Virus record (IMG/VR): IMGVR_UViG_3300045988_136184
Direction: 5' to 3' (one strand)
Source: a virus
Length of the DNA: 16,591 nucleotides
Below are positions 8,241-16,591 of this stretch, piece after piece. Below the pieces are notes generated by a model, which was not told the origin of the DNA, did no database searches, and saw only the letters and a program-made list of their open reading frames with translations. The translations under genes and the position numbers were made by a program. Within the stretch, counting starts at the first letter, position 1. Each line of letters begins with the position of its first letter.

Positions 8241-8966
8241 CTACCATCGCGGCCGCGCCGACACGGCCGGCGGCGAAGACGGGCCGTCGATCAGGCGAAG
8301 CCGCGAAAGCTGCGTGCGCCGCGTCTCCAGCATCCCGTCCACCTTCGCTTGCGTGATGCCGATCCGGCGCCATCGCTTCAGCAGCTCCACGTCTTCACGG
8401 CCACGCCGGCACTCGGCCATGCGCCCGCGCAACAGCTGGTCGTCGGCGTCCAGGACCACCACGTCATAGTTCAACGCGATCCACTCGGCCAGCATGTTCG
8501 GACTGTTGCGGGACGTCGGCAGCGCACGCACCAGCCACACATGCCTGGCCGTGACCATGCGGGACACACGCCGGTACGCGCTGCCCCACAACGTATCGGC
8601 CAGCGCGTGCGCCTCGCTGCCGCCGTCCACGCACGCGACCGCCAGCCTCGACGGGTCCACCACGATATCGCCCGGCGCCATGTGGTCGCGCACATACGCG
8701 GTCTTGCCCACGCATGGCGGGCCTATCACGGCCGTGACCTGCGCGCCGAAGCCGGACACCACACGATCCGCGCGCAACGAATTGCAGTGCTTACACGCCG
8801 GCCGAAGATTGCTCGGAACGGTCGGGCCGTAGAGACTGTAAGGCTTCACGTGGTCCATGGTCTCCGTGCCCCTGTGCGTGCATCCCGGCATGTCCAGCCA
8901 ACAATCGGAGCCGAACGTGAGCAGCACTTGCGCGGCCATGTTCGGCGGCACCCTCTTGCGCTTCAT
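8241..8966 (-). CDS. HNH endonuclease fused to a P-loop NTPase / kinase-like domain, 241 aa
   Basis: The N-terminus reads CWLDMPGC...DHVKPYSLYGPTVPSNLRPACKHCN, an HNH motif with a Cys4-type zinc site. The C-terminus has Walker A (VIGPPCVGKT) and Walker B-like (YDVVVLDAD) motifs. The ATG at 8966 forms an ATGA overlap with the upstream stop. Confidence 0.7.
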   Translation of the reverse strand: MKRKRVPPNMAAQVLLTFGSDCWLDMPGCTHRGTETMDHVKPYSLYGPTVPSNLRPACKHCNSLRADRVVSGFGAQVTAVIGPPCVGKTAYVRDHMAPGDIVVDPSRLAVACVDGGSEAHALADTLWGSAYRRVSRMVTARHVWLVRALPTSRNSPNMLAEWIALNYDVVVLDADDQLLRGRMAECRRGREDVELLKRWRRIGITQAKVDGMLETRRTQLSRLRLIDGPSSPPAVSARPRW

Positions 8967-9133
8967 TGCCTCTTCCCCATCCACTTGTTCACATCGTCCA
9001 CGAGATACACCACGCGGCCCTCCAACATGTACCACTTCGGCCCACGGCCCTGCTTGCGCCACATGTAGAGCGTCTGACCGGACTTGCCCAGGAACTCGGC
9101 CAGCTCACGCGCATACAGGAAACGACGGCCCAT
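8963..9133 (-). CDS. Excisionase-family / MerR-like HTH DNA-binding protein (candidate Xis/RDF), 56 aa
   Basis: MGRRFLYARELAEFLGKSGQTLYMWRKQGRGPKWYMLEGRVVYLVDDVNKWMGKRQ fits the excisionase-type winged HTH pattern. It forms a TGATG junction with the upstream gene. Confidence 0.6.
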   Translation of the reverse strand: MGRRFLYARELAEFLGKSGQTLYMWRKQGRGPKWYMLEGRVVYLVDDVNKWMGKRQ

Positions 9134-10182: not shown

Positions 10183-10428
10183 TCACGCCTCTTCGATATC
10201 GAGTTGCACGGCGTCGGGTATCGACTTGATGCAGCAAATCAGCTCATAGCCCGCGTACTCGGGTATCGAGCCGGTGGTAAGCACGATGGCCGGCGCGTCC
10301 TTGTCGTCCGTGAAGCAGCGCACCGGGCCACAGGACCATTTCACGCTGTTCTTCGTCTGGAGCCGGAACACCACGAGGTCGCCCGGCCGCACGTCCCCGG
10401 GCTCGGTCGAAATCTCATACCGCATCAT
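10183..10428 (-). CDS. Hypothetical protein, 81 aa
   Basis: The start is MMRYEISTEPGDV at 10428 or 10425, overlapping the end of the zinc-ribbon ORF by 14 nt. I recognise no family. Confidence 0.5.
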   Translation of the reverse strand: MMRYEISTEPGDVRPGDLVVFRLQTKNSVKWSCGPVRCFTDDKDAPAIVLTTGSIPEYAGYELICCIKSIPDAVQLDIEEA

Positions 10429-10588: not shown

Positions 10589-10767
10589 CGGTCCTGCTCC
10601 CTTGCATTCAGAAAACGATTGATCTCCTCACGCCACTGCCTCAAATCGGCCGGCGACGCGTCGAATTCCAGGCCGCAATGCGCCGCGAAATAATCCGGGA
10701 ACGACACACGGAACATGCGGTATTCCTCGGCTTCGGCGTTCAAACAAATCGACATGCGCATGGTCAC
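10585..10767 (-). CDS. Hypothetical protein, 60 aa (GTG start)
   Basis: The GTG at 10767 forms a GTGA overlap with the cro-like stop; an alternative ATG lies at 10761. I recognise no family. Confidence 0.45.
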   Translation of the reverse strand: MTMRMSICLNAEAEEYRMFRVSFPDYFAAHCGLEFDASPADLRQWREEINRFLNAREQDR

Positions 10768-10979
10768 GCCTCCAACGGCTTCGCGTAATCGGAACGGCCT
10801 GTGAGGTAATCAAGCGACACGTCGAACGCGTCGGCGATTTTCCGCATGTCCTTCAAGGTGAAGTTGGTGCGGCCGTGAAACTTGTCGCTCACGGCCTGTT
10901 CGGACACGCCCAGCACCTCGGCTAGGTCGCGCTGCTTCAGGTGGTGGGCCCTCAACAGTCTTCGGATATTGCTAATCAA
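10764..10979 (-). CDS. Cro-like XRE-family HTH regulator, 71 aa from TTG 10979 (the maximal ORF extends to GTG 11054, 96 aa)
   Basis: HTH core: NIRRLLRAHHLKQRDLAEVLGVSEQAVSDKFHGRTNFTLKDMRKIADAFDVSLDYL. The TTG at 10979 has GAAGG 5 nt upstream and leaves the operator repeats intergenic. The GTG at 11054 has no RBS and would bury an operator inside the ORF. Confidence 0.7.
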   Translation of the reverse strand: MISNIRRLLRAHHLKQRDLAEVLGVSEQAVSDKFHGRTNFTLKDMRKIADAFDVSLDYLTGRSDYAKPLEA

Positions 10980-10993
10980 ATCTGCCTTCTTCG

Positions 10994-11015
10994 TAGAAGC
11001 TACTGAATATCTGTA
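10994..11015. promoter_or_regulatory. Operator-like repeat copy A (tagaAGCTACtGAATATCtGTA)
   Basis: 19 of 22 positions are identical to copy B, 64 bp away. It is an imperfect internal palindrome. A shorter third relative, ACTGAATCTG, lies at 11033-11042. A candidate -35 TTGACG for the minus strand lies at 11030-11025. Confidence 0.55.
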
Positions 11016-11057
11016 ATTACTACACGTCAAAAACTGAATCTGCAACCGCGACACGCC

Positions 11058-11079
11058 TAGTAGCTACGGAATATCCGTA
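11058..11079. promoter_or_regulatory. Operator-like repeat copy B, containing the perfect 7-3-7 palindrome CTACGGA-ATA-TCCGTAG
   Basis: Read directly (palindrome at 11063-11079). It sits just upstream of a TAAATT -10-like hexamer (11081-11086) and the repressor start codons (GTG 11088, ATG 11094). This is compatible with a leaderless transcript. Confidence 0.55.
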
Positions 11080-11087
11080 GTAAATTA

Positions 11088-11510
11088 GTGGTTATGACAG
11101 CAACAATGACAATGCCGAACGCGATGCGTAGGCAAGATGTAGTAGCAAAGAACGTTGGTTTGATGGTGAAGGCGCGTGGGCTGAAGAAGAAGGATCTAGC
11201 GCAAGCGATGGGGATTTCCCCTCAGGCTGTTTCCACGCGGTTGCAGGGTACTGCCAATTGGACGCTAGACGAGGCTTGCGCGGCTGCCGATTTTCTCCGC
11301 GTGCCGCTGGACACACTTCTTCGCGCGTCGCTTACCGCCGGCGAGGTGCTGGGGTATGAAAAAACCGCCGCCCCGGATGATTCCGGGAACGGCGGTCAAT
11401 TGGTAGCGGGGCATGGATTTGAACCATGGACCTCTGGTAACGTTGTTGCCCAGAGGTCCACGGTTCAAATCCATGAAGCCCGATTATTTGATTTTATCCT
11501 AGCGGCGTAA
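11088..11510 (+). CDS. CI-like XRE-family HTH repressor, 140 aa viral form; its 3' third reads through the attP core and it ends in ...ILAA
   Basis: HTH: VAKNVGLMVKARGLKKKDLAQAMGISPQAVSTRLQGTANWTLDEACAAADFLRVPLDTLL. Codons from about 105 onward (GGQLVAGHGFEPWTSG...) are the complement of a tRNA 3' end. The terminal codons are atc cta gcg gcg taa, encoding I L A A stop. Confidence 0.75.
   Translation: MVMTATMTMPNAMRRQDVVAKNVGLMVKARGLKKKDLAQAMGISPQAVSTRLQGTANWTLDEACAAADFLRVPLDTLLRASLTAGEVLGYEKTAAPDDSGNGGQLVAGHGFEPWTSGNVVAQRSTVQIHEARLFDFILAA
11401..11437 (-). other. attP core: 3' terminal fragment of a tRNA gene (no 5' half, so not a functional tRNA)
   Basis: The minus strand reads CCAGAGGTC-CATGG-TTCAAAT-CCATG-CCCCGCT-A-CCA. 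This is a perfect T-arm, 7-nt acceptor strand, discriminator and CCA. The upstream sequence does not fold into anticodon, D or 5' acceptor arms. It lies next to the integrase gene. Confidence 0.75.
11412..11475. repeat. 26-bp inverted repeat (one A/C mismatch) with a 12-nt spacer; the left arm is the tRNA-fragment T-arm region and the right arm is a degenerate inverted copy
   Basis: Left arm 11412-11437 is catggatttgaaccatggacctctgg. The spacer is taacgttgttgc. Right arm 11450-11475 is ccagaggtccacggttcaaatccatg. Confidence 0.9.
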
Positions 11511-11528
11511 TGCCGCCGGCCGCCAAGG

Positions 11529-12368
11529 ATGCCGGCCGTGAGTATGCACAAAAAGCTGCCCCCTGCTCAGTGGCGGGACGAAATCACCCTATGGCTCGAA
11601 TCGCTCACGGCGGCGGGCCTCAGTCAGGACACCGTCAACACGCGGCGGTGCAAGATAGGCCACGCGGCGCGGTGCCTGGATAAATCGCCCTATGACGTGA
11701 CGTCGGAGGATCTAGTGCATTGGACCGCCTCGCAATCATGGAAGGCGGAGACGCGCAAGGGCTACCGAAACACGCTCGTCGGTTTTTTCCGGTGGCTGCA
11801 TGCCACGGGCCGGCGCGCGGACGATCCGGCCGCCGCGCTGCCGAAGGTGCGCAAGACGCGGCCGCATCCCCGCCCGTGCCCCGACGTGCACATATACGCT
11901 GCCATGTGCGCCGCGAACGATGTGGAACGGCTCATGCTGCGTCTCGGAGCAGAAGCCGGGTTGAGGCTGTCCGAAATCGCGGCCGTCCACTCGCGCGACG
12001 TGCTGGAAGGCGACGCCGGCCCGTCGCTGATAGTGCGGGGCAAGGGCGACAAACAGCGCATAGTGCCCATAAGCGAGGACCTGGCGAAGCGGATAACGGC
12101 CGCGCCCGGTTGGCTGTTCCCCGGCCGGTGGCGTGGACACGTCGAAAAATCGTATGTGTCCCGCCACCTCACACGGCTGCTGCCGGACGGTTGGGGGCCG
12201 CACTCGCTGCGCCACCGGTACGCCACGCGCATGTACGAGACCACGCACGATCTGCTGCTGGTCTCGAAACTGCTGGGACATAGCAGCGTGGAGACCACGC
12301 AAATCTACGTGGCGATGCCGGACAGCCGTCTGCGCGTCGGTCTGGACGCGGTGACGTTGGCCGGCTAG
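11529..12368 (+). CDS. int: Tyrosine integrase (XerC/D-sized, 279 aa; the start could be 11529, 11538 or 11544)
   Basis: Catalytic signature residues: Arg in AGLRLSEI, Lys in GKGDKQRIVPI, HxxR in HSLRHRYAT, and H...Y in LGHSSVETTQIYV. An N-terminal SAM-like core-binding region is present. There is no room for a separate arm-binding domain. Confidence 0.9.
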   Translation: MPAVSMHKKLPPAQWRDEITLWLESLTAAGLSQDTVNTRRCKIGHAARCLDKSPYDVTSEDLVHWTASQSWKAETRKGYRNTLVGFFRWLHATGRRADDPAAALPKVRKTRPHPRPCPDVHIYAAMCAANDVERLMLRLGAEAGLRLSEIAAVHSRDVLEGDAGPSLIVRGKGDKQRIVPISEDLAKRITAAPGWLFPGRWRGHVEKSYVSRHLTRLLPDGWGPHSLRHRYATRMYETTHDLLLVSKLLGHSSVETTQIYVAMPDSRLRVGLDAVTLAG

Positions 12369-12624: not shown

Positions 12625-13479
12625 CTATCCTTCCTTTTCGGTGGTCTTGTCGGTGGCGGTCACGCTGATTTCCAGCGAGTCCAGCTTCGCGCGCACGGCG
12701 TCCGCGACGATCTTGGATATGTCGGCCGGGTTCGCTCCCAGCGCCTTGCTAAGCGCCTCGATCGCGGCGGTCTGCGCCGTCAGCTGGGTTTTGAGGTCGG
12801 CTATGTCGTAACGCGCCTGGATGACGCTATCCAACACGTTGCGGCCGTCGTTGCCCTTGGTCTGGATCAACGCGTCGGCGGCCCGGTCCTTGAGCTCGTT
12901 CCGGGTCTGGATGATTCCATCGAAGAGATTGCGGCCGTCGTTGCCCTTGGTCTCGTAAAGGTCTTGCGCACTCACTGTTCCTGCTCCTGTCAAAAGTTGG
13001 TTTGCTTTGTTGATTACATAATCCACGTCCAGACCATTCGCGGCCCGGTCGGGACATCCTGCGTGATCGCTGCCTGGTATCTCTCGGTGCAACCACACGT
13101 TGCCTTTTAGCCCGTCGTGCCATAGGCGCGGCCAGCCGTATCGGCGCGCGATGTCCGCGCACAAGGCGGCGCTAGCGTCCATGCACGCCTTGGTGCAGGG
13201 GACGCCGGCCATGCCGCCTTCGTGCTCGATGCTGATGGTCTGGCAGTTCGACGCATAGTTGCTGTCGGTCCACGGCGCGTCAGTTTCTCGCACATACTGG
13301 TGGATCAGGCCCGTGGAGCCGATGCCGTATGTGCTGGACGCCTGGCGCACCGGATTCTGAAACGTCGCGTCGGTGCCGGCGAGACGGCCTACCATGATGT
13401 GCAGGGTGATGTGCGTGACCTCGTAGCCGTTGCGTCCCGCGTAGTGGTTGGGGCTGCCTATCCATGTGCTATTGACCAT
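12625..13479 (-). CDS. Endolysin: N-acetylmuramoyl-L-alanine amidase (Amidase_2 / PGRP fold) with a repeat-containing C-terminal region, 284 aa
   Basis: Zinc-ligand pattern: THITLH ... WLHREIPGSDHAGCPD. The RBS AAGGAG lies 8 nt upstream of the ATG at 13479. The C-terminus has two 30-aa repeats, TKGNDGRN(L/V)(F/L)D..IQ.R, followed by a coiled segment. Confidence 0.85.
   Translation of the reverse strand: MVNSTWIGSPNHYAGRNGYEVTHITLHIMVGRLAGTDATFQNPVRQASSTYGIGSTGLIHQYVRETDAPWTDSNYASNCQTISIEHEGGMAGVPCTKACMDASAALCADIARRYGWPRLWHDGLKGNVWLHREIPGSDHAGCPDRAANGLDVDYVINKANQLLTGAGTVSAQDLYETKGNDGRNLFDGIIQTRNELKDRAADALIQTKGNDGRNVLDSVIQARYDIADLKTQLTAQTAAIEALSKALGANPADISKIVADAVRAKLDSLEISVTATDKTTEKEG
12849..12963. 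repeat. Two perfect 25-bp direct repeats (ttgcggccgtcgttgcccttggtct) 90 bp apart inside the endolysin gene
   Basis: The copies lie at 12849-12873 and 12939-12963. They encode the TKGNDGRN cores of the 30-aa protein repeats. Confidence 0.9.
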
Positions 13480-15963: not shown

Positions 15964-16591
15964 CAGTTGCCTCGCTTCCGGTCGTAGTCGCGGAGAATCT
16001 TCCTGATTTCGCGTGCCACGCCCTCGCGGTCCACGGGCGCGTTGAACGTGACGTTGAAAACGGTGGCCGTACTGGCCGCCTGACTGCCGGCGGTGGTACC
16101 GCCGTTGAACACGACGTTGGACAGGCGGCCGTTGATGTTGCCGATGGCGCGGCGCACGTCGGTGTCGAAGCCGAGGCCAAGGCCTTTGGCGAGGCCCTGC
16201 ATGATGAGGCGGCCGTTTTTCACCAGCAGCACCTTGTCGTAGGCGGCGGGGCCCTTGTGCTCCGCGATCCAGTCGGCGATGCCGCCGATGAACCCGGTCA
16301 CGTTGTTCCACGCGGATTTCAGACCGTCGAGGAAACCCTCGATGATGCTTGAGCCCGCGTTCCACAGCAGCCGTCCAACGTTGCCGATGGCGGACAGGAT
16401 GCGGCCGGGCAGTCCACTGAACCAGCTGACCACGTTGTTCCACGTGTTCTGCGCGAACTGGGCTGCGCTGGAGAAGAACGCGCCTATCCTGCCGGGCAGT
16501 GATTGGAAGAATCCGATGATGTTGTTCACGCACGCGCCGATGAAGTTGGTGAAGTTGCTCCATATCTGCCGACCGCTTTCGGTCTGGGTAA
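15963..16591 (-). CDS. Tail tape measure protein, C-terminal part (16451-16591 duplicates 1-141); the whole protein is 692 aa
   Basis: The track ORF 15963-16529 (NNIIGFFQSLPGRIGAFF...KILRDYDRKRGN) is open up to the window end. Position 16529 corresponds to position 79, which is in frame with the ATG at 1591. The sequence has Gly/Ala-rich repeats and a hydrophobic segment, as is typical of tape measure proteins. Confidence 0.85.
   Translation of the reverse strand, partial: TQTESGRQIWSNFTNFIGACVNNIIGFFQSLPGRIGAFFSSAAQFAQNTWNNVVSWFSGLPGRILSAIGNVGRLLWNAGSSIIEGFLDGLKSAWNNVTGFIGGIADWIAEHKGPAAYDKVLLVKNGRLIMQGLAKGLGLGFDTDVRRAIGNINGRLSNVVFNGGTTAGSQAASTATVFNVTFNAPVDREGVAREIRKILRDYDRKRGN
16451..16591. 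repeat. Terminal overlap copy 2 (identical to 1-141)
   Basis: Same 141-nt string as the window start. Confidence 0.95.

Follow-up and report, generated by a model that had tools for sequence, protein, structure and literature searches.

A probable integration-dependent immunity cassette around a quasi-palindromic attP in a small temperate phage of Bifidobacterium

Introduction

What becomes of a phage repressor when the attachment site (attP) lies inside its gene is the question raised by IMG/VR record IMGVR_UViG_3300045988_136184, a stretch of 16,591 nucleotides (nt) that was analysed in full and is called the window here. Its repressor gene (rep) reads through attP and ends in codons for Leu-Ala-Ala (-LAA), as ssrA-like degradation tags do, and it is followed on the same strand by a tyrosine integrase gene (int). 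A preliminary description, made from the letters alone, took this layout, with a divergent cro-like gene, for a switch in which integration truncates the repressor (Rep), removes the tag and so yields the stable, active form. Such integration-dependent immunity was reportedly described by Broussard et al. in 2013 for the mycobacteriophages BPs, Brujita and Charlie.

Hallmarks of these systems are an int/rep/cro cassette of ~2 kb, attP inside rep, a tagged integrase (Int) and the lack of xis; their Int has no arm-binding domain, and integration into a tRNA gene strips the C-terminal tag from Rep (PMC3694055). At the sequence level, the window and its integrated copies present a compact cassette, attP in the 3′ part of rep, and distinct viral and prophage forms of Rep. 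The best explanation, and one that we hold to be probable, is that its cro-like gene, operators, rep (containing attP) and int form an integration-dependent immunity cassette. The reading proposed in the preliminary description is supported, at that same level, by the integration junctions, by a conserved Rep tail and by the homology of Int.

The window is a circular contig of 16,450 bp, as follows from the identity of bases 1-141 with bases 16451-16591 (a 141-nt overlap), and it represents a small temperate Bifidobacterium siphovirus, whose genome is complete and unintegrated. Related loci and Rep homologues are cited below by L and P numbers, respectively.

The cro-rep-int cassette

The plus strand carries two genes only, rep (11088-11510) and int (11529-12368), which are adjacent and co-oriented. 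Together with a divergent cro-like helix-turn-helix (HTH) gene, and with operators between the two HTH genes, they make up a cassette of ~1.6 kb (10764-12368):

10764-11054, minus strand: divergent cro-like HTH gene (Pfam HTH_3, E 1.2e-12), given as its longest open reading frame (ORF)
11001-11015, unstranded: operator-like palindrome TACTGAATATCTGTA, within a 22-nt direct repeat; matches TACNGAATATCNGTA
11065-11079, unstranded: operator-like palindrome TACGGAATATCCGTA, just upstream of rep; matches TACNGAATATCNGTA
11088-11510, plus strand: viral-form rep, HTH_3 of Cro/CI type, 140 amino acids (aa) from a GTG start, with alternative ATGs at 11094, 11106 and 11112
11401-11437, minus strand: attP common core, an initiator-type tRNA-Met 3′ end (last 4 nt of the anticodon stem, T arm, acceptor, CCA)
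11439-11510, plus strand: viral-only Rep tail, N118-A140 and stop, absent from prophage-form proteins (...TSGL) and predicted to be disordered
11499-11510, plus strand: Leu-Ala-Ala codons (11499-11507) and TAA (11508-11510), an ssrA-like tag at the ORF end ILAA-TAA
11529-12368, plus strand: tyrosine integrase, 279 aa, ending -TLAG (Pfam Phage_integrase, E 1.5e-20)

Depending on the start, Rep is 140 aa (GTG), 134 aa (ATG 11106) or 132 aa (ATG 11112) long, and identical 132- or 134-aa proteins occur on 17 other contigs. The Pfam HTH_3 match covers residues 28-77 (E 2.4e-07), in line with the earlier statement that the HTH domain is finished by about residue 75. In an AlphaFold model of the 134-aa protein, built with 36 homologues, residues 7-88 form a helical domain and residues 88-131 score below 50 in the predicted local distance difference test (pLDDT). 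Since a fold is predicted for residues 7-88 only, truncation spares the folded domain and takes off a disordered tail.

The divergent cro-like gene that had been described is an HTH_3 ORF whose true start is probably further downstream than that of the longest ORF; cro-like homologues adjoin rep in L001, L082 and L083 as well. What had been called an operator-repeat region holds two copies of a 15-bp palindrome, TACNGAATATCNGTA, between the HTH genes (11001-11015 and 11065-11079). This palindrome has no further match in the window, and two matches were obtained in none of 200 shuffles. Both copies are putative Rep-binding sites. A scan of 10600-11700 for sigma-70 promoters and terminators returned no promoter-like site, and no terminator at the hairpin described below.

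Int begins 18 nt downstream of rep, and the Phage_integrase ORF on the same strand bears out its earlier identification as a tyrosine integrase. The catalytic domain alone is detected (residues 124-263), and the predicted protein appears too short for an arm-binding domain. In a tBLASTn search of isolated phages, which used Int as the sole query, Int identity was 46.6% to Gordonia phage EricDab, 43.5% to GMA5 and ~44% to cluster G mycobacteriophages (BPs-type). The Int C-termini of nearly all lineages, the window included, read L-x-x with small or hydrophobic residues (LAG, LAA, LQA, LGA, LAV, LVS; one pair ends -KQA), a pattern that recalls the tagged Int of BPs.

The tRNA-Met target and the integration junctions

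The reverse complement of 11401-11437, CCAGAGGTCCATGGTTCAAATCCATGCCCCGCTACCA, is the exact 3′ part of the tRNA-Met that ARAGORN calls in L001, L082 and L083. ARAGORN finds no tRNA in the window; the 3′ part is therefore present alone, with no 5′ half, just as the 37-nt core had been read, and its identity is now fixed as tRNA-Met. Hallmarks of an initiator tRNA are seen in L054 and L068, namely a 5′-CGCGGGG...CCCCGCUA acceptor, a C1-U72 mismatch and GGG/CCC beside the anticodon loop.

The preliminary description had suggested looking for the attB tRNA and for integrated copies, and both were found. L082, with a Rep 99% identical to that of the window, and L083 are integrated copies of the same phage, and L001 is a relative in the genome of Bifidobacterium sp. 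M3-N-101, on a 258-kb contig in which metA and the atp operon come after rep. In these three loci, a complete tRNA-Met (ARAGORN) on the opposite strand overlaps the end of rep at attR. attR matches the window letter for letter as far as ...GGACCTCTGG (11437), beyond which it is antisense tRNA-Met. At the attL loci (L002, L012 and others), host terminator sequence runs up to GTAGCGGGG and is followed by core, tail and int, the window being equal to attL from GTAGCGGGG (11404) onward. attP is hence composed of the left part of attR and the right part of attL; the tRNA is rebuilt at attR, and the core is duplicated at attL, upstream of int. Both the attR and the attL junctions lie within 11401-11437, where integration had been placed, and the expected separation of int from the rep promoter is also seen, with int at attL behind host DNA and rep at attR.

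Within the core, the site of strand exchange can be narrowed to one segment:

11431-11437, unstranded: inferred 7-bp strand-exchange segment CCTCTGG (tRNA strand CCAGAGG), from the attL of L034 and L044 and from L080

The attL sites of L034 and L044 keep the whole host-type T arm (host tRNA T stem ACAGG/CCTGT) up to CCTCTGG, and in L080 (1-620), where a window-type prophage stands head to head with a second phage, the switch from one phage to the other falls exactly at CCAGAGG. From these junctions, strand exchange most likely occurs within CCTCTGG. The T loop was weighed as the crossover site and dismissed, given the complete host-type T arm in L034 and L044 and the position of the L080 switch. 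L080 is itself a tandem at one tRNA-Met, in which a window-type int faces an int of the F-type sister lineage (see below) across ...GCAACAACGTTA-CCAGAGG-TCACAGG....

Viral and prophage forms of Rep

On the free genome, the rep ORF continues past the core and ends FDFILAA-TAA, as described before, although after 23 codons (N118-A140) rather than ~24. Translation across attR into host sequence, which the preliminary description had called for, places the prophage stop in the anticodon loop: the frame reads GGG TTA TGA, whose TGA comes from the opposite strand of the anticodon loop CTCATAA, and Rep ends ...EPWTSGL. Prophage Rep is thus viral Rep without its 23 tail residues and with one host-encoded Leu, a net loss of 22 residues (110 vs 132 aa from ATG 11112; 118 vs 140 aa from GTG). 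The earlier estimate of a prophage form of roughly 105-120 aa plus host residues can accordingly be replaced by 110 or 118 aa, one residue of which is host-encoded.

Both forms are represented among relatives. With Rep as query, the protein collection yielded 75 homologues, each from Bifidobacterium or a gut metagenome. They fall into two classes, one ending ...GHGFEPWTSGL and one with tails that end in -LAA or -LTA. P0004, a member of the short class that stands for 78 sequences, is 99% identical to the window Rep. In the window, the -LAA end is unique to rep among 219 open frames of at least 40 aa.

To follow the tail across lineages, IMG/VR was scanned with Int (80 loci, 58-100% Int identity), and each distinct sequence was translated from core to stop. 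The C-terminus is L-A-A or L-T-A in 21 of the 22 distinct tails of relatives. Relative to the DNA, the middle part of the tail is translated in two or more frames (...AQRSTVQIHEARLFDFILAA vs ...YPRGPRSKSMPRLILSLAA), and synonymous codons are used at its end (Leu as CTA, CTG or TTA; Ala as GCG, GCT or GCA; stop as TAA, TGA or TAG). That an L(A/T)A end is kept despite changes of frame and of synonymous codons points to selection on the protein end. In sequence and predicted structure, the Rep C-terminus fits the form of an ssrA-like ClpX degron, L-A-A on an apparently accessible tail (pLDDT <50). A scan with the published core of transfer-messenger RNA (tmRNA) against genome contigs and viral sequences recovered no Bifidobacterium tmRNA.

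As the junctions show, Int recombines attP with the initiator-type tRNA-Met gene of the host, and the phage-borne 3′ half rebuilds the tRNA. Integration leads rep at attR into antisense tRNA, with a TGA stop in the anticodon loop after one Leu, and places int at attL behind host DNA, off the rep promoter. The prophage Rep keeps the whole predicted HTH fold and loses the 22-residue disordered -ILAA tail. By the precedent of BPs, Brujita and Charlie, and in view of the conserved tail, the -LAA end would target Rep of the free genome to ClpXP-type proteases, so that lytic growth would be the default. Integration, on the same grounds, would yield a stable Rep that acts on the two palindromic operators and confers immunity, and the frequency of lysogeny would be set by the availability of Int.

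A quasi-palindromic attP

The att core and tag cassette of the preliminary description stand, but a second, forward copy of the tRNA T arm and the inverted repeat had been overlooked. The repeat has the following parts:

11412-11437, unstranded: reverse arm, lying within the att core; position 11426 is polymorphic
11438-11449, unstranded: spacer of 12 nt, where phage-only sequence starts on the right-hand side of the core
11450-11475, plus strand: second arm, a forward tRNA T-arm copy CCAGAGGTCCACGGTTCAAATCCATG (variable region and T arm), within the rep tail

The two 26-nt arms (11412-11437 and 11450-11475) have one mismatch, are 96% complementary and are separated by the 12-nt spacer. The predicted hairpin has a folding energy of -62.9 kcal/mol as RNA (z -8.8) and a z score of -8.3 as DNA. 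The forward copy is kept in most relatives with the tail in differing frames (AQRSTVQIH vs PRGPRFKSM) and with spacers of 3-13 nt by eye, or 5-15 nt in a tally that starts at CCTCTGG and runs to either CCAGAGG or the forward T arm. Its retention across reading frames and spacers suggests a constraint on DNA or RNA and not on protein. The attP regions of EricDab and Taheera have no comparable large inverted repeat, which makes the repeat a lineage-specific addition.

The reverse arm was compared with the forward arm in attL sites and in viral genomes (L002-L077 and L118-L131). At attL, the reverse arm is the displaced half of the host tRNA. There, the inner 14 nt of the reverse arm perfectly complement the forward arm of the site's own phage in 28 of 34 attL sites with a forward copy (examples are CCGTG/CACGG, CCTTG/CAAGG, TT/AA and a T-loop G), and in 22 of those 28 a T-stem base pair is lost through the match. 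In the lineage without a forward copy, the reverse arms at attL are tRNA-perfect (8 of 8). Position 11426 was compared in 16 viral genomes of the window type: 11 have A, which is tRNA-perfect, and five have G, which is palindrome-perfect. G is found on several int haplotypes, and the forward arm is invariant. The idea that the reverse arm is always tRNA-perfect in viral genomes was overturned by 14 further viral contigs, nine with A and five with G at this position.

The simplest reading is that the reverse arm has been recurrently homogenised with the adjacent forward arm as template. Quasipalindrome template switching is a known mutational process, and it matches the observed homogenisation (PMC7202029, PMC8604942). 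An alternative that was weighed, heterology within an extended strand-exchange region together with selection on attR, agrees with L034 and fails for L006. The attL and attR of the B. breve prophage Bb423phi2 differ by a one-base mismatch (CCTTGG vs CCATGG) that is listed without explanation in Table 3 of Mavrich et al. (PMC6109161), and that is a further instance of the arm matching described here.

Metagenomes were also scanned for excision scars, that is, for intact tRNA genes with a homogenised T arm. None of the 8 hits was an intact tRNA, and all 8 are displaced 3′ halves behind forward-oriented phages. Tandem lysogeny explains these halves, and the scan therefore neither supports nor refutes the anti-curing idea set out in the next section. 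In L084-L091, the matching far junctions of the L080 tandem carry displaced tRNA halves with a homogenised T arm.

Sister lineages and the orientation of attP

In a sister lineage with ~60% Int identity (F-type; L069, L073, L074), the tRNA core has the forward orientation and lies between the rep stop and int. Rep of this lineage ends ...AMVLAA, and its stop precedes the core by 16-20 nt, both in viral sequences (L069, L073, L074) and in the integrated L090; the rep/core region of L069 is at 2442-2900. The F-type rep genes hold a relic of the reverse core (GT-GCGGGGCATGGA...), which means that both lineages have two inverted tRNA-derived copies, a different one being active in each. These sequences suggest an evolutionary history in which attP moved into and out of rep by flipping its orientation.

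Joined to arm homogenisation, this leads to a broader proposal that we regard as possible though doubtful: attP would be a quasi-palindrome that is not passive, made of two inverted initiator-tRNA 3′ halves that act both as homogenising arms and as a pivot of orientation. The reverse arm that is homogenised would be the phage's own at attP, or the displaced host half at attL. If true, the 3′ half of the host tRNA would be corrupted in lysogens, and precise excision would leave an initiator tRNA with a mismatched T stem, an anti-curing ratchet. The inverted copies would also be the pivot on which attP flipped between the sister lineages, either into rep, where the tag is removable, or to just outside it, where the tag is permanent. 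The result would be a natural series of lineages along the path proposed by Broussard and Hatfull, on which integration-dependent switches give way to integration-independent ones.

Further variants of rep were seen around attP. In L037-L044, within the 200 nt upstream of int, an out-of-frame remnant of the LAA codons, CTAGCTGCG, persists and the forward T-arm copy is absent. In the L050 type, rep reads through the forward core and ends ...YTVTA. In P0007, P0032 and P0035, rep runs to about residue 85-90 and is there joined to sequence past attP or inside int; these may be deletions that removed attP, with or without most of int, and may be either real or assembly errors, and the P0007 deletion may have arisen between short GC-rich repeats. 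Two unrelated N-terminal families of Rep, ...TAAPDDSGNGGQLVAGHG... and ...DIEKASGFFNVKPEALVAGHG..., share core and tails (P0047-P0071 vs P0001-P0046), and the breakpoint of this mosaicism is the att core. In P0033, P0019 and P0036, the frame leads into attachment sequences of other kinds; -LAA is the end of P0036 as well.

Comparison with known systems

BPs, Brujita and Charlie share with the window a three-gene cro-rep-int cassette with attP in the 3′ end of rep, and the window Int is ~44% identical to cluster G Int. They differ from it in the branch of the host phylum, in the tRNA target and in genome size (at least 41 kb, vs 16 kb here); the quasi-palindromic attP of the window is not seen in Taheera, and function has been tested only in the mycobacteriophages. 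Cluster G phage Taheera has the same cro/rep/int order, with a rep that reads through an antisense tRNA segment. EricDab (16.7 kb) and GMA5 (17.6 kb), which have the closest Ints among isolated phages, are near the window in genome size. EricDab also has a divergent gene followed by rep and int, and its rep runs through an antisense tRNA segment and ends -PPWAA, while its Int ends -AAAA. Unlike the window phage, EricDab and GMA5 have Gordonia as host and use another tRNA.

In Bifidobacterium, Mavrich et al. (2018) predicted the switch in silico for the ~18-kb B. breve tRNA-Met prophages Bb423phi2 and 689b-1, which have int at attL and rep at attR, and named it integration-dependent immunity (PMC6109161). 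Bl-1 and Bbr-1 are related elements, and the viral Rep reconstructed for Bb423phi2 and 689b-1 is 18 residues longer and carries an ssrA-like tag at its end (PMC6109161). These prophages resemble the window phage in host genus, in an attB formed by the tRNA-Met gene beside metA, in a 39-bp attR core, TGGTAGCGGGGCATGGATTTGAACCATGGACCTCTGGGT, that contains the window's 37 bp, and in size (~18 kb vs 16.45 kb). However, Rep of the Bb423phi2 type is 55-59% identical to that of the window, and an Int found with that tail type (L064) is 59% identical. The extra Rep residues number 18 as against 22 in the window, the forward T-arm copy stands in another frame, and the inverted repeat present in the window goes unmentioned by Mavrich et al. 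(PMC6109161). The viral allele of Bb423phi2 was reconstructed, whereas that of the window is read directly on a circular contig.

The switch reading is right but already known for tRNA-Met bifidoprophages, among which the window is a new lineage. The conceptual gain is accordingly small, given a system that is established in mycobacteriophages and that had been predicted for these prophages. The window contributes a natural viral rep allele, since Bb423phi2 was not seen to excise by Mavrich et al., and dozens of metagenomic relatives add that the tag end is conserved at the protein level. The homology of Int to its BPs-group counterpart makes the cassette look like an old mobile module that is spread over the Actinobacteria, among them the abundant Bifidobacterium of the human gut. 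Potential novelty lies only in the quasi-palindromic attP and the homogenisation of its arms. Natural controls for the role of the tag in the switch are provided by the sister lineages, some of which lose the tag on integration while others retain it or have none.

Alternative explanations

The lineages that differ in their tags also bear on whether the tail has a role at all. If attP were an ordinary tRNA-targeting site that happens to overlap a dispensable 3′ end of rep, the tail would be non-regulatory and immunity would be independent of integration. This would accommodate the F-type lineage, whose Rep retains -LAA when integrated, and the L037-L044 lineage, which is without the tag. We nevertheless consider it unlikely, in view of the L(A/T)A end in 21 of 22 tails, which is reached in several frames and with synonymous variation, of the uniqueness of that end among the 219 open frames of the window, and of a gene order that is the one of the experimentally characterised cluster G system, with a homologous Int. 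The constraint on DNA or RNA raises another candidate, in which the 26-bp hairpin or quasi-palindrome is the main functional element of 11401-11490 and the ORF is secondary, possibly alongside the tag. Such an element could provide Int-binding architecture, form a barrier to rep-int transcription or RNA processing, or insulate the upstream side of int at attL. The stability of the hairpin (RNA -62.9 kcal/mol and z -8.8, DNA z -8.3) speaks for it, as do the forward T-arm copy conserved over reading frames and over spacers of 3-13 nt by eye, the arms kept or made complementary at 28 of 34 attL sites, and the absence of the repeat from EricDab and Taheera, which makes the repeat a lineage-specific addition. 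Yet the LAA codons lie outside the hairpin, the L037-L044 family, which has both viral and attL forms, works without the forward copy, the stem is not followed by a terminator-like run of T, and the arms of viral genomes usually have 1-3 mismatches; we judge it quite improbable that the hairpin is the main element.

Integration-dependent immunity nonetheless has several observations to contend with. The tail overlaps the strongly conserved DNA or RNA hairpin, and part of its conservation is therefore not at the protein level. In the lineage of L037-L044, the tail ends ...DYWALVD, without LAA. The ...AMVLAA end of the integrated L090 means that integration does not remove the tag in the F-type lineage. 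The window Int, ending -TLAG, is at most loosely ssrA-like, and excision of Bb423phi2 was not seen by Mavrich et al. (PMC6109161). A possible recombination directionality factor, which such systems are expected to lack, also lies among the minus-strand ORFs:

8963-9130, minus strand: Xis-like ORF (HTH_17, excisionase-like), 55 aa, just upstream of the HNH/small-terminase gene

Genome context and CRISPR spacers

The minus strand encodes an HNH/small-terminase-like protein (terS/HNH), the large terminase (TerL), a portal, a protease-capsid fusion, a major tail protein, an endolysin and a holin. The contig is not taken for a cryptic remnant or an assembly artefact, given this full structural and lysis module, the 141-nt circular overlap and the presence of the same attP on 16 other contigs. 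With megablast, the window as a whole had no nucleotide match among 50,697 phage records, and relatives were found only through protein-level searches. The capsid-protease fusion is 35% identical to that of small Microbacterium phages, and the structural genes of the window are nearer to these than to those of the Gordonia phages EricDab and GMA5. A 58-nt direct repeat (12806-12863 and 12896-12953, 81% identical, 90 nt apart) within the endolysin gene (12625-13479, minus strand) suggests a module of 30 residues that is repeated.

CRISPR spacers with consistent protospacer adjacent motifs target the window phage. One database 'homologue' of Rep, P0074, is an ORF called over a CRISPR array (L117, 303-2584) with 34 repeats of ATTTCAATCCACGCTCTCCATGAGGAGAGCGAC. 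Past its last spacer, L117 runs into phage DNA, probably through an assembly switch at that point. Three of the last four spacers of the array are 100% identical to the window (10277-10311, 11387-11420 and 11441-11474). The protospacers at 11387-11420 and 11441-11474 fall within the rep and attP region discussed here, and TTC precedes each protospacer in the orientation of the CRISPR RNA.

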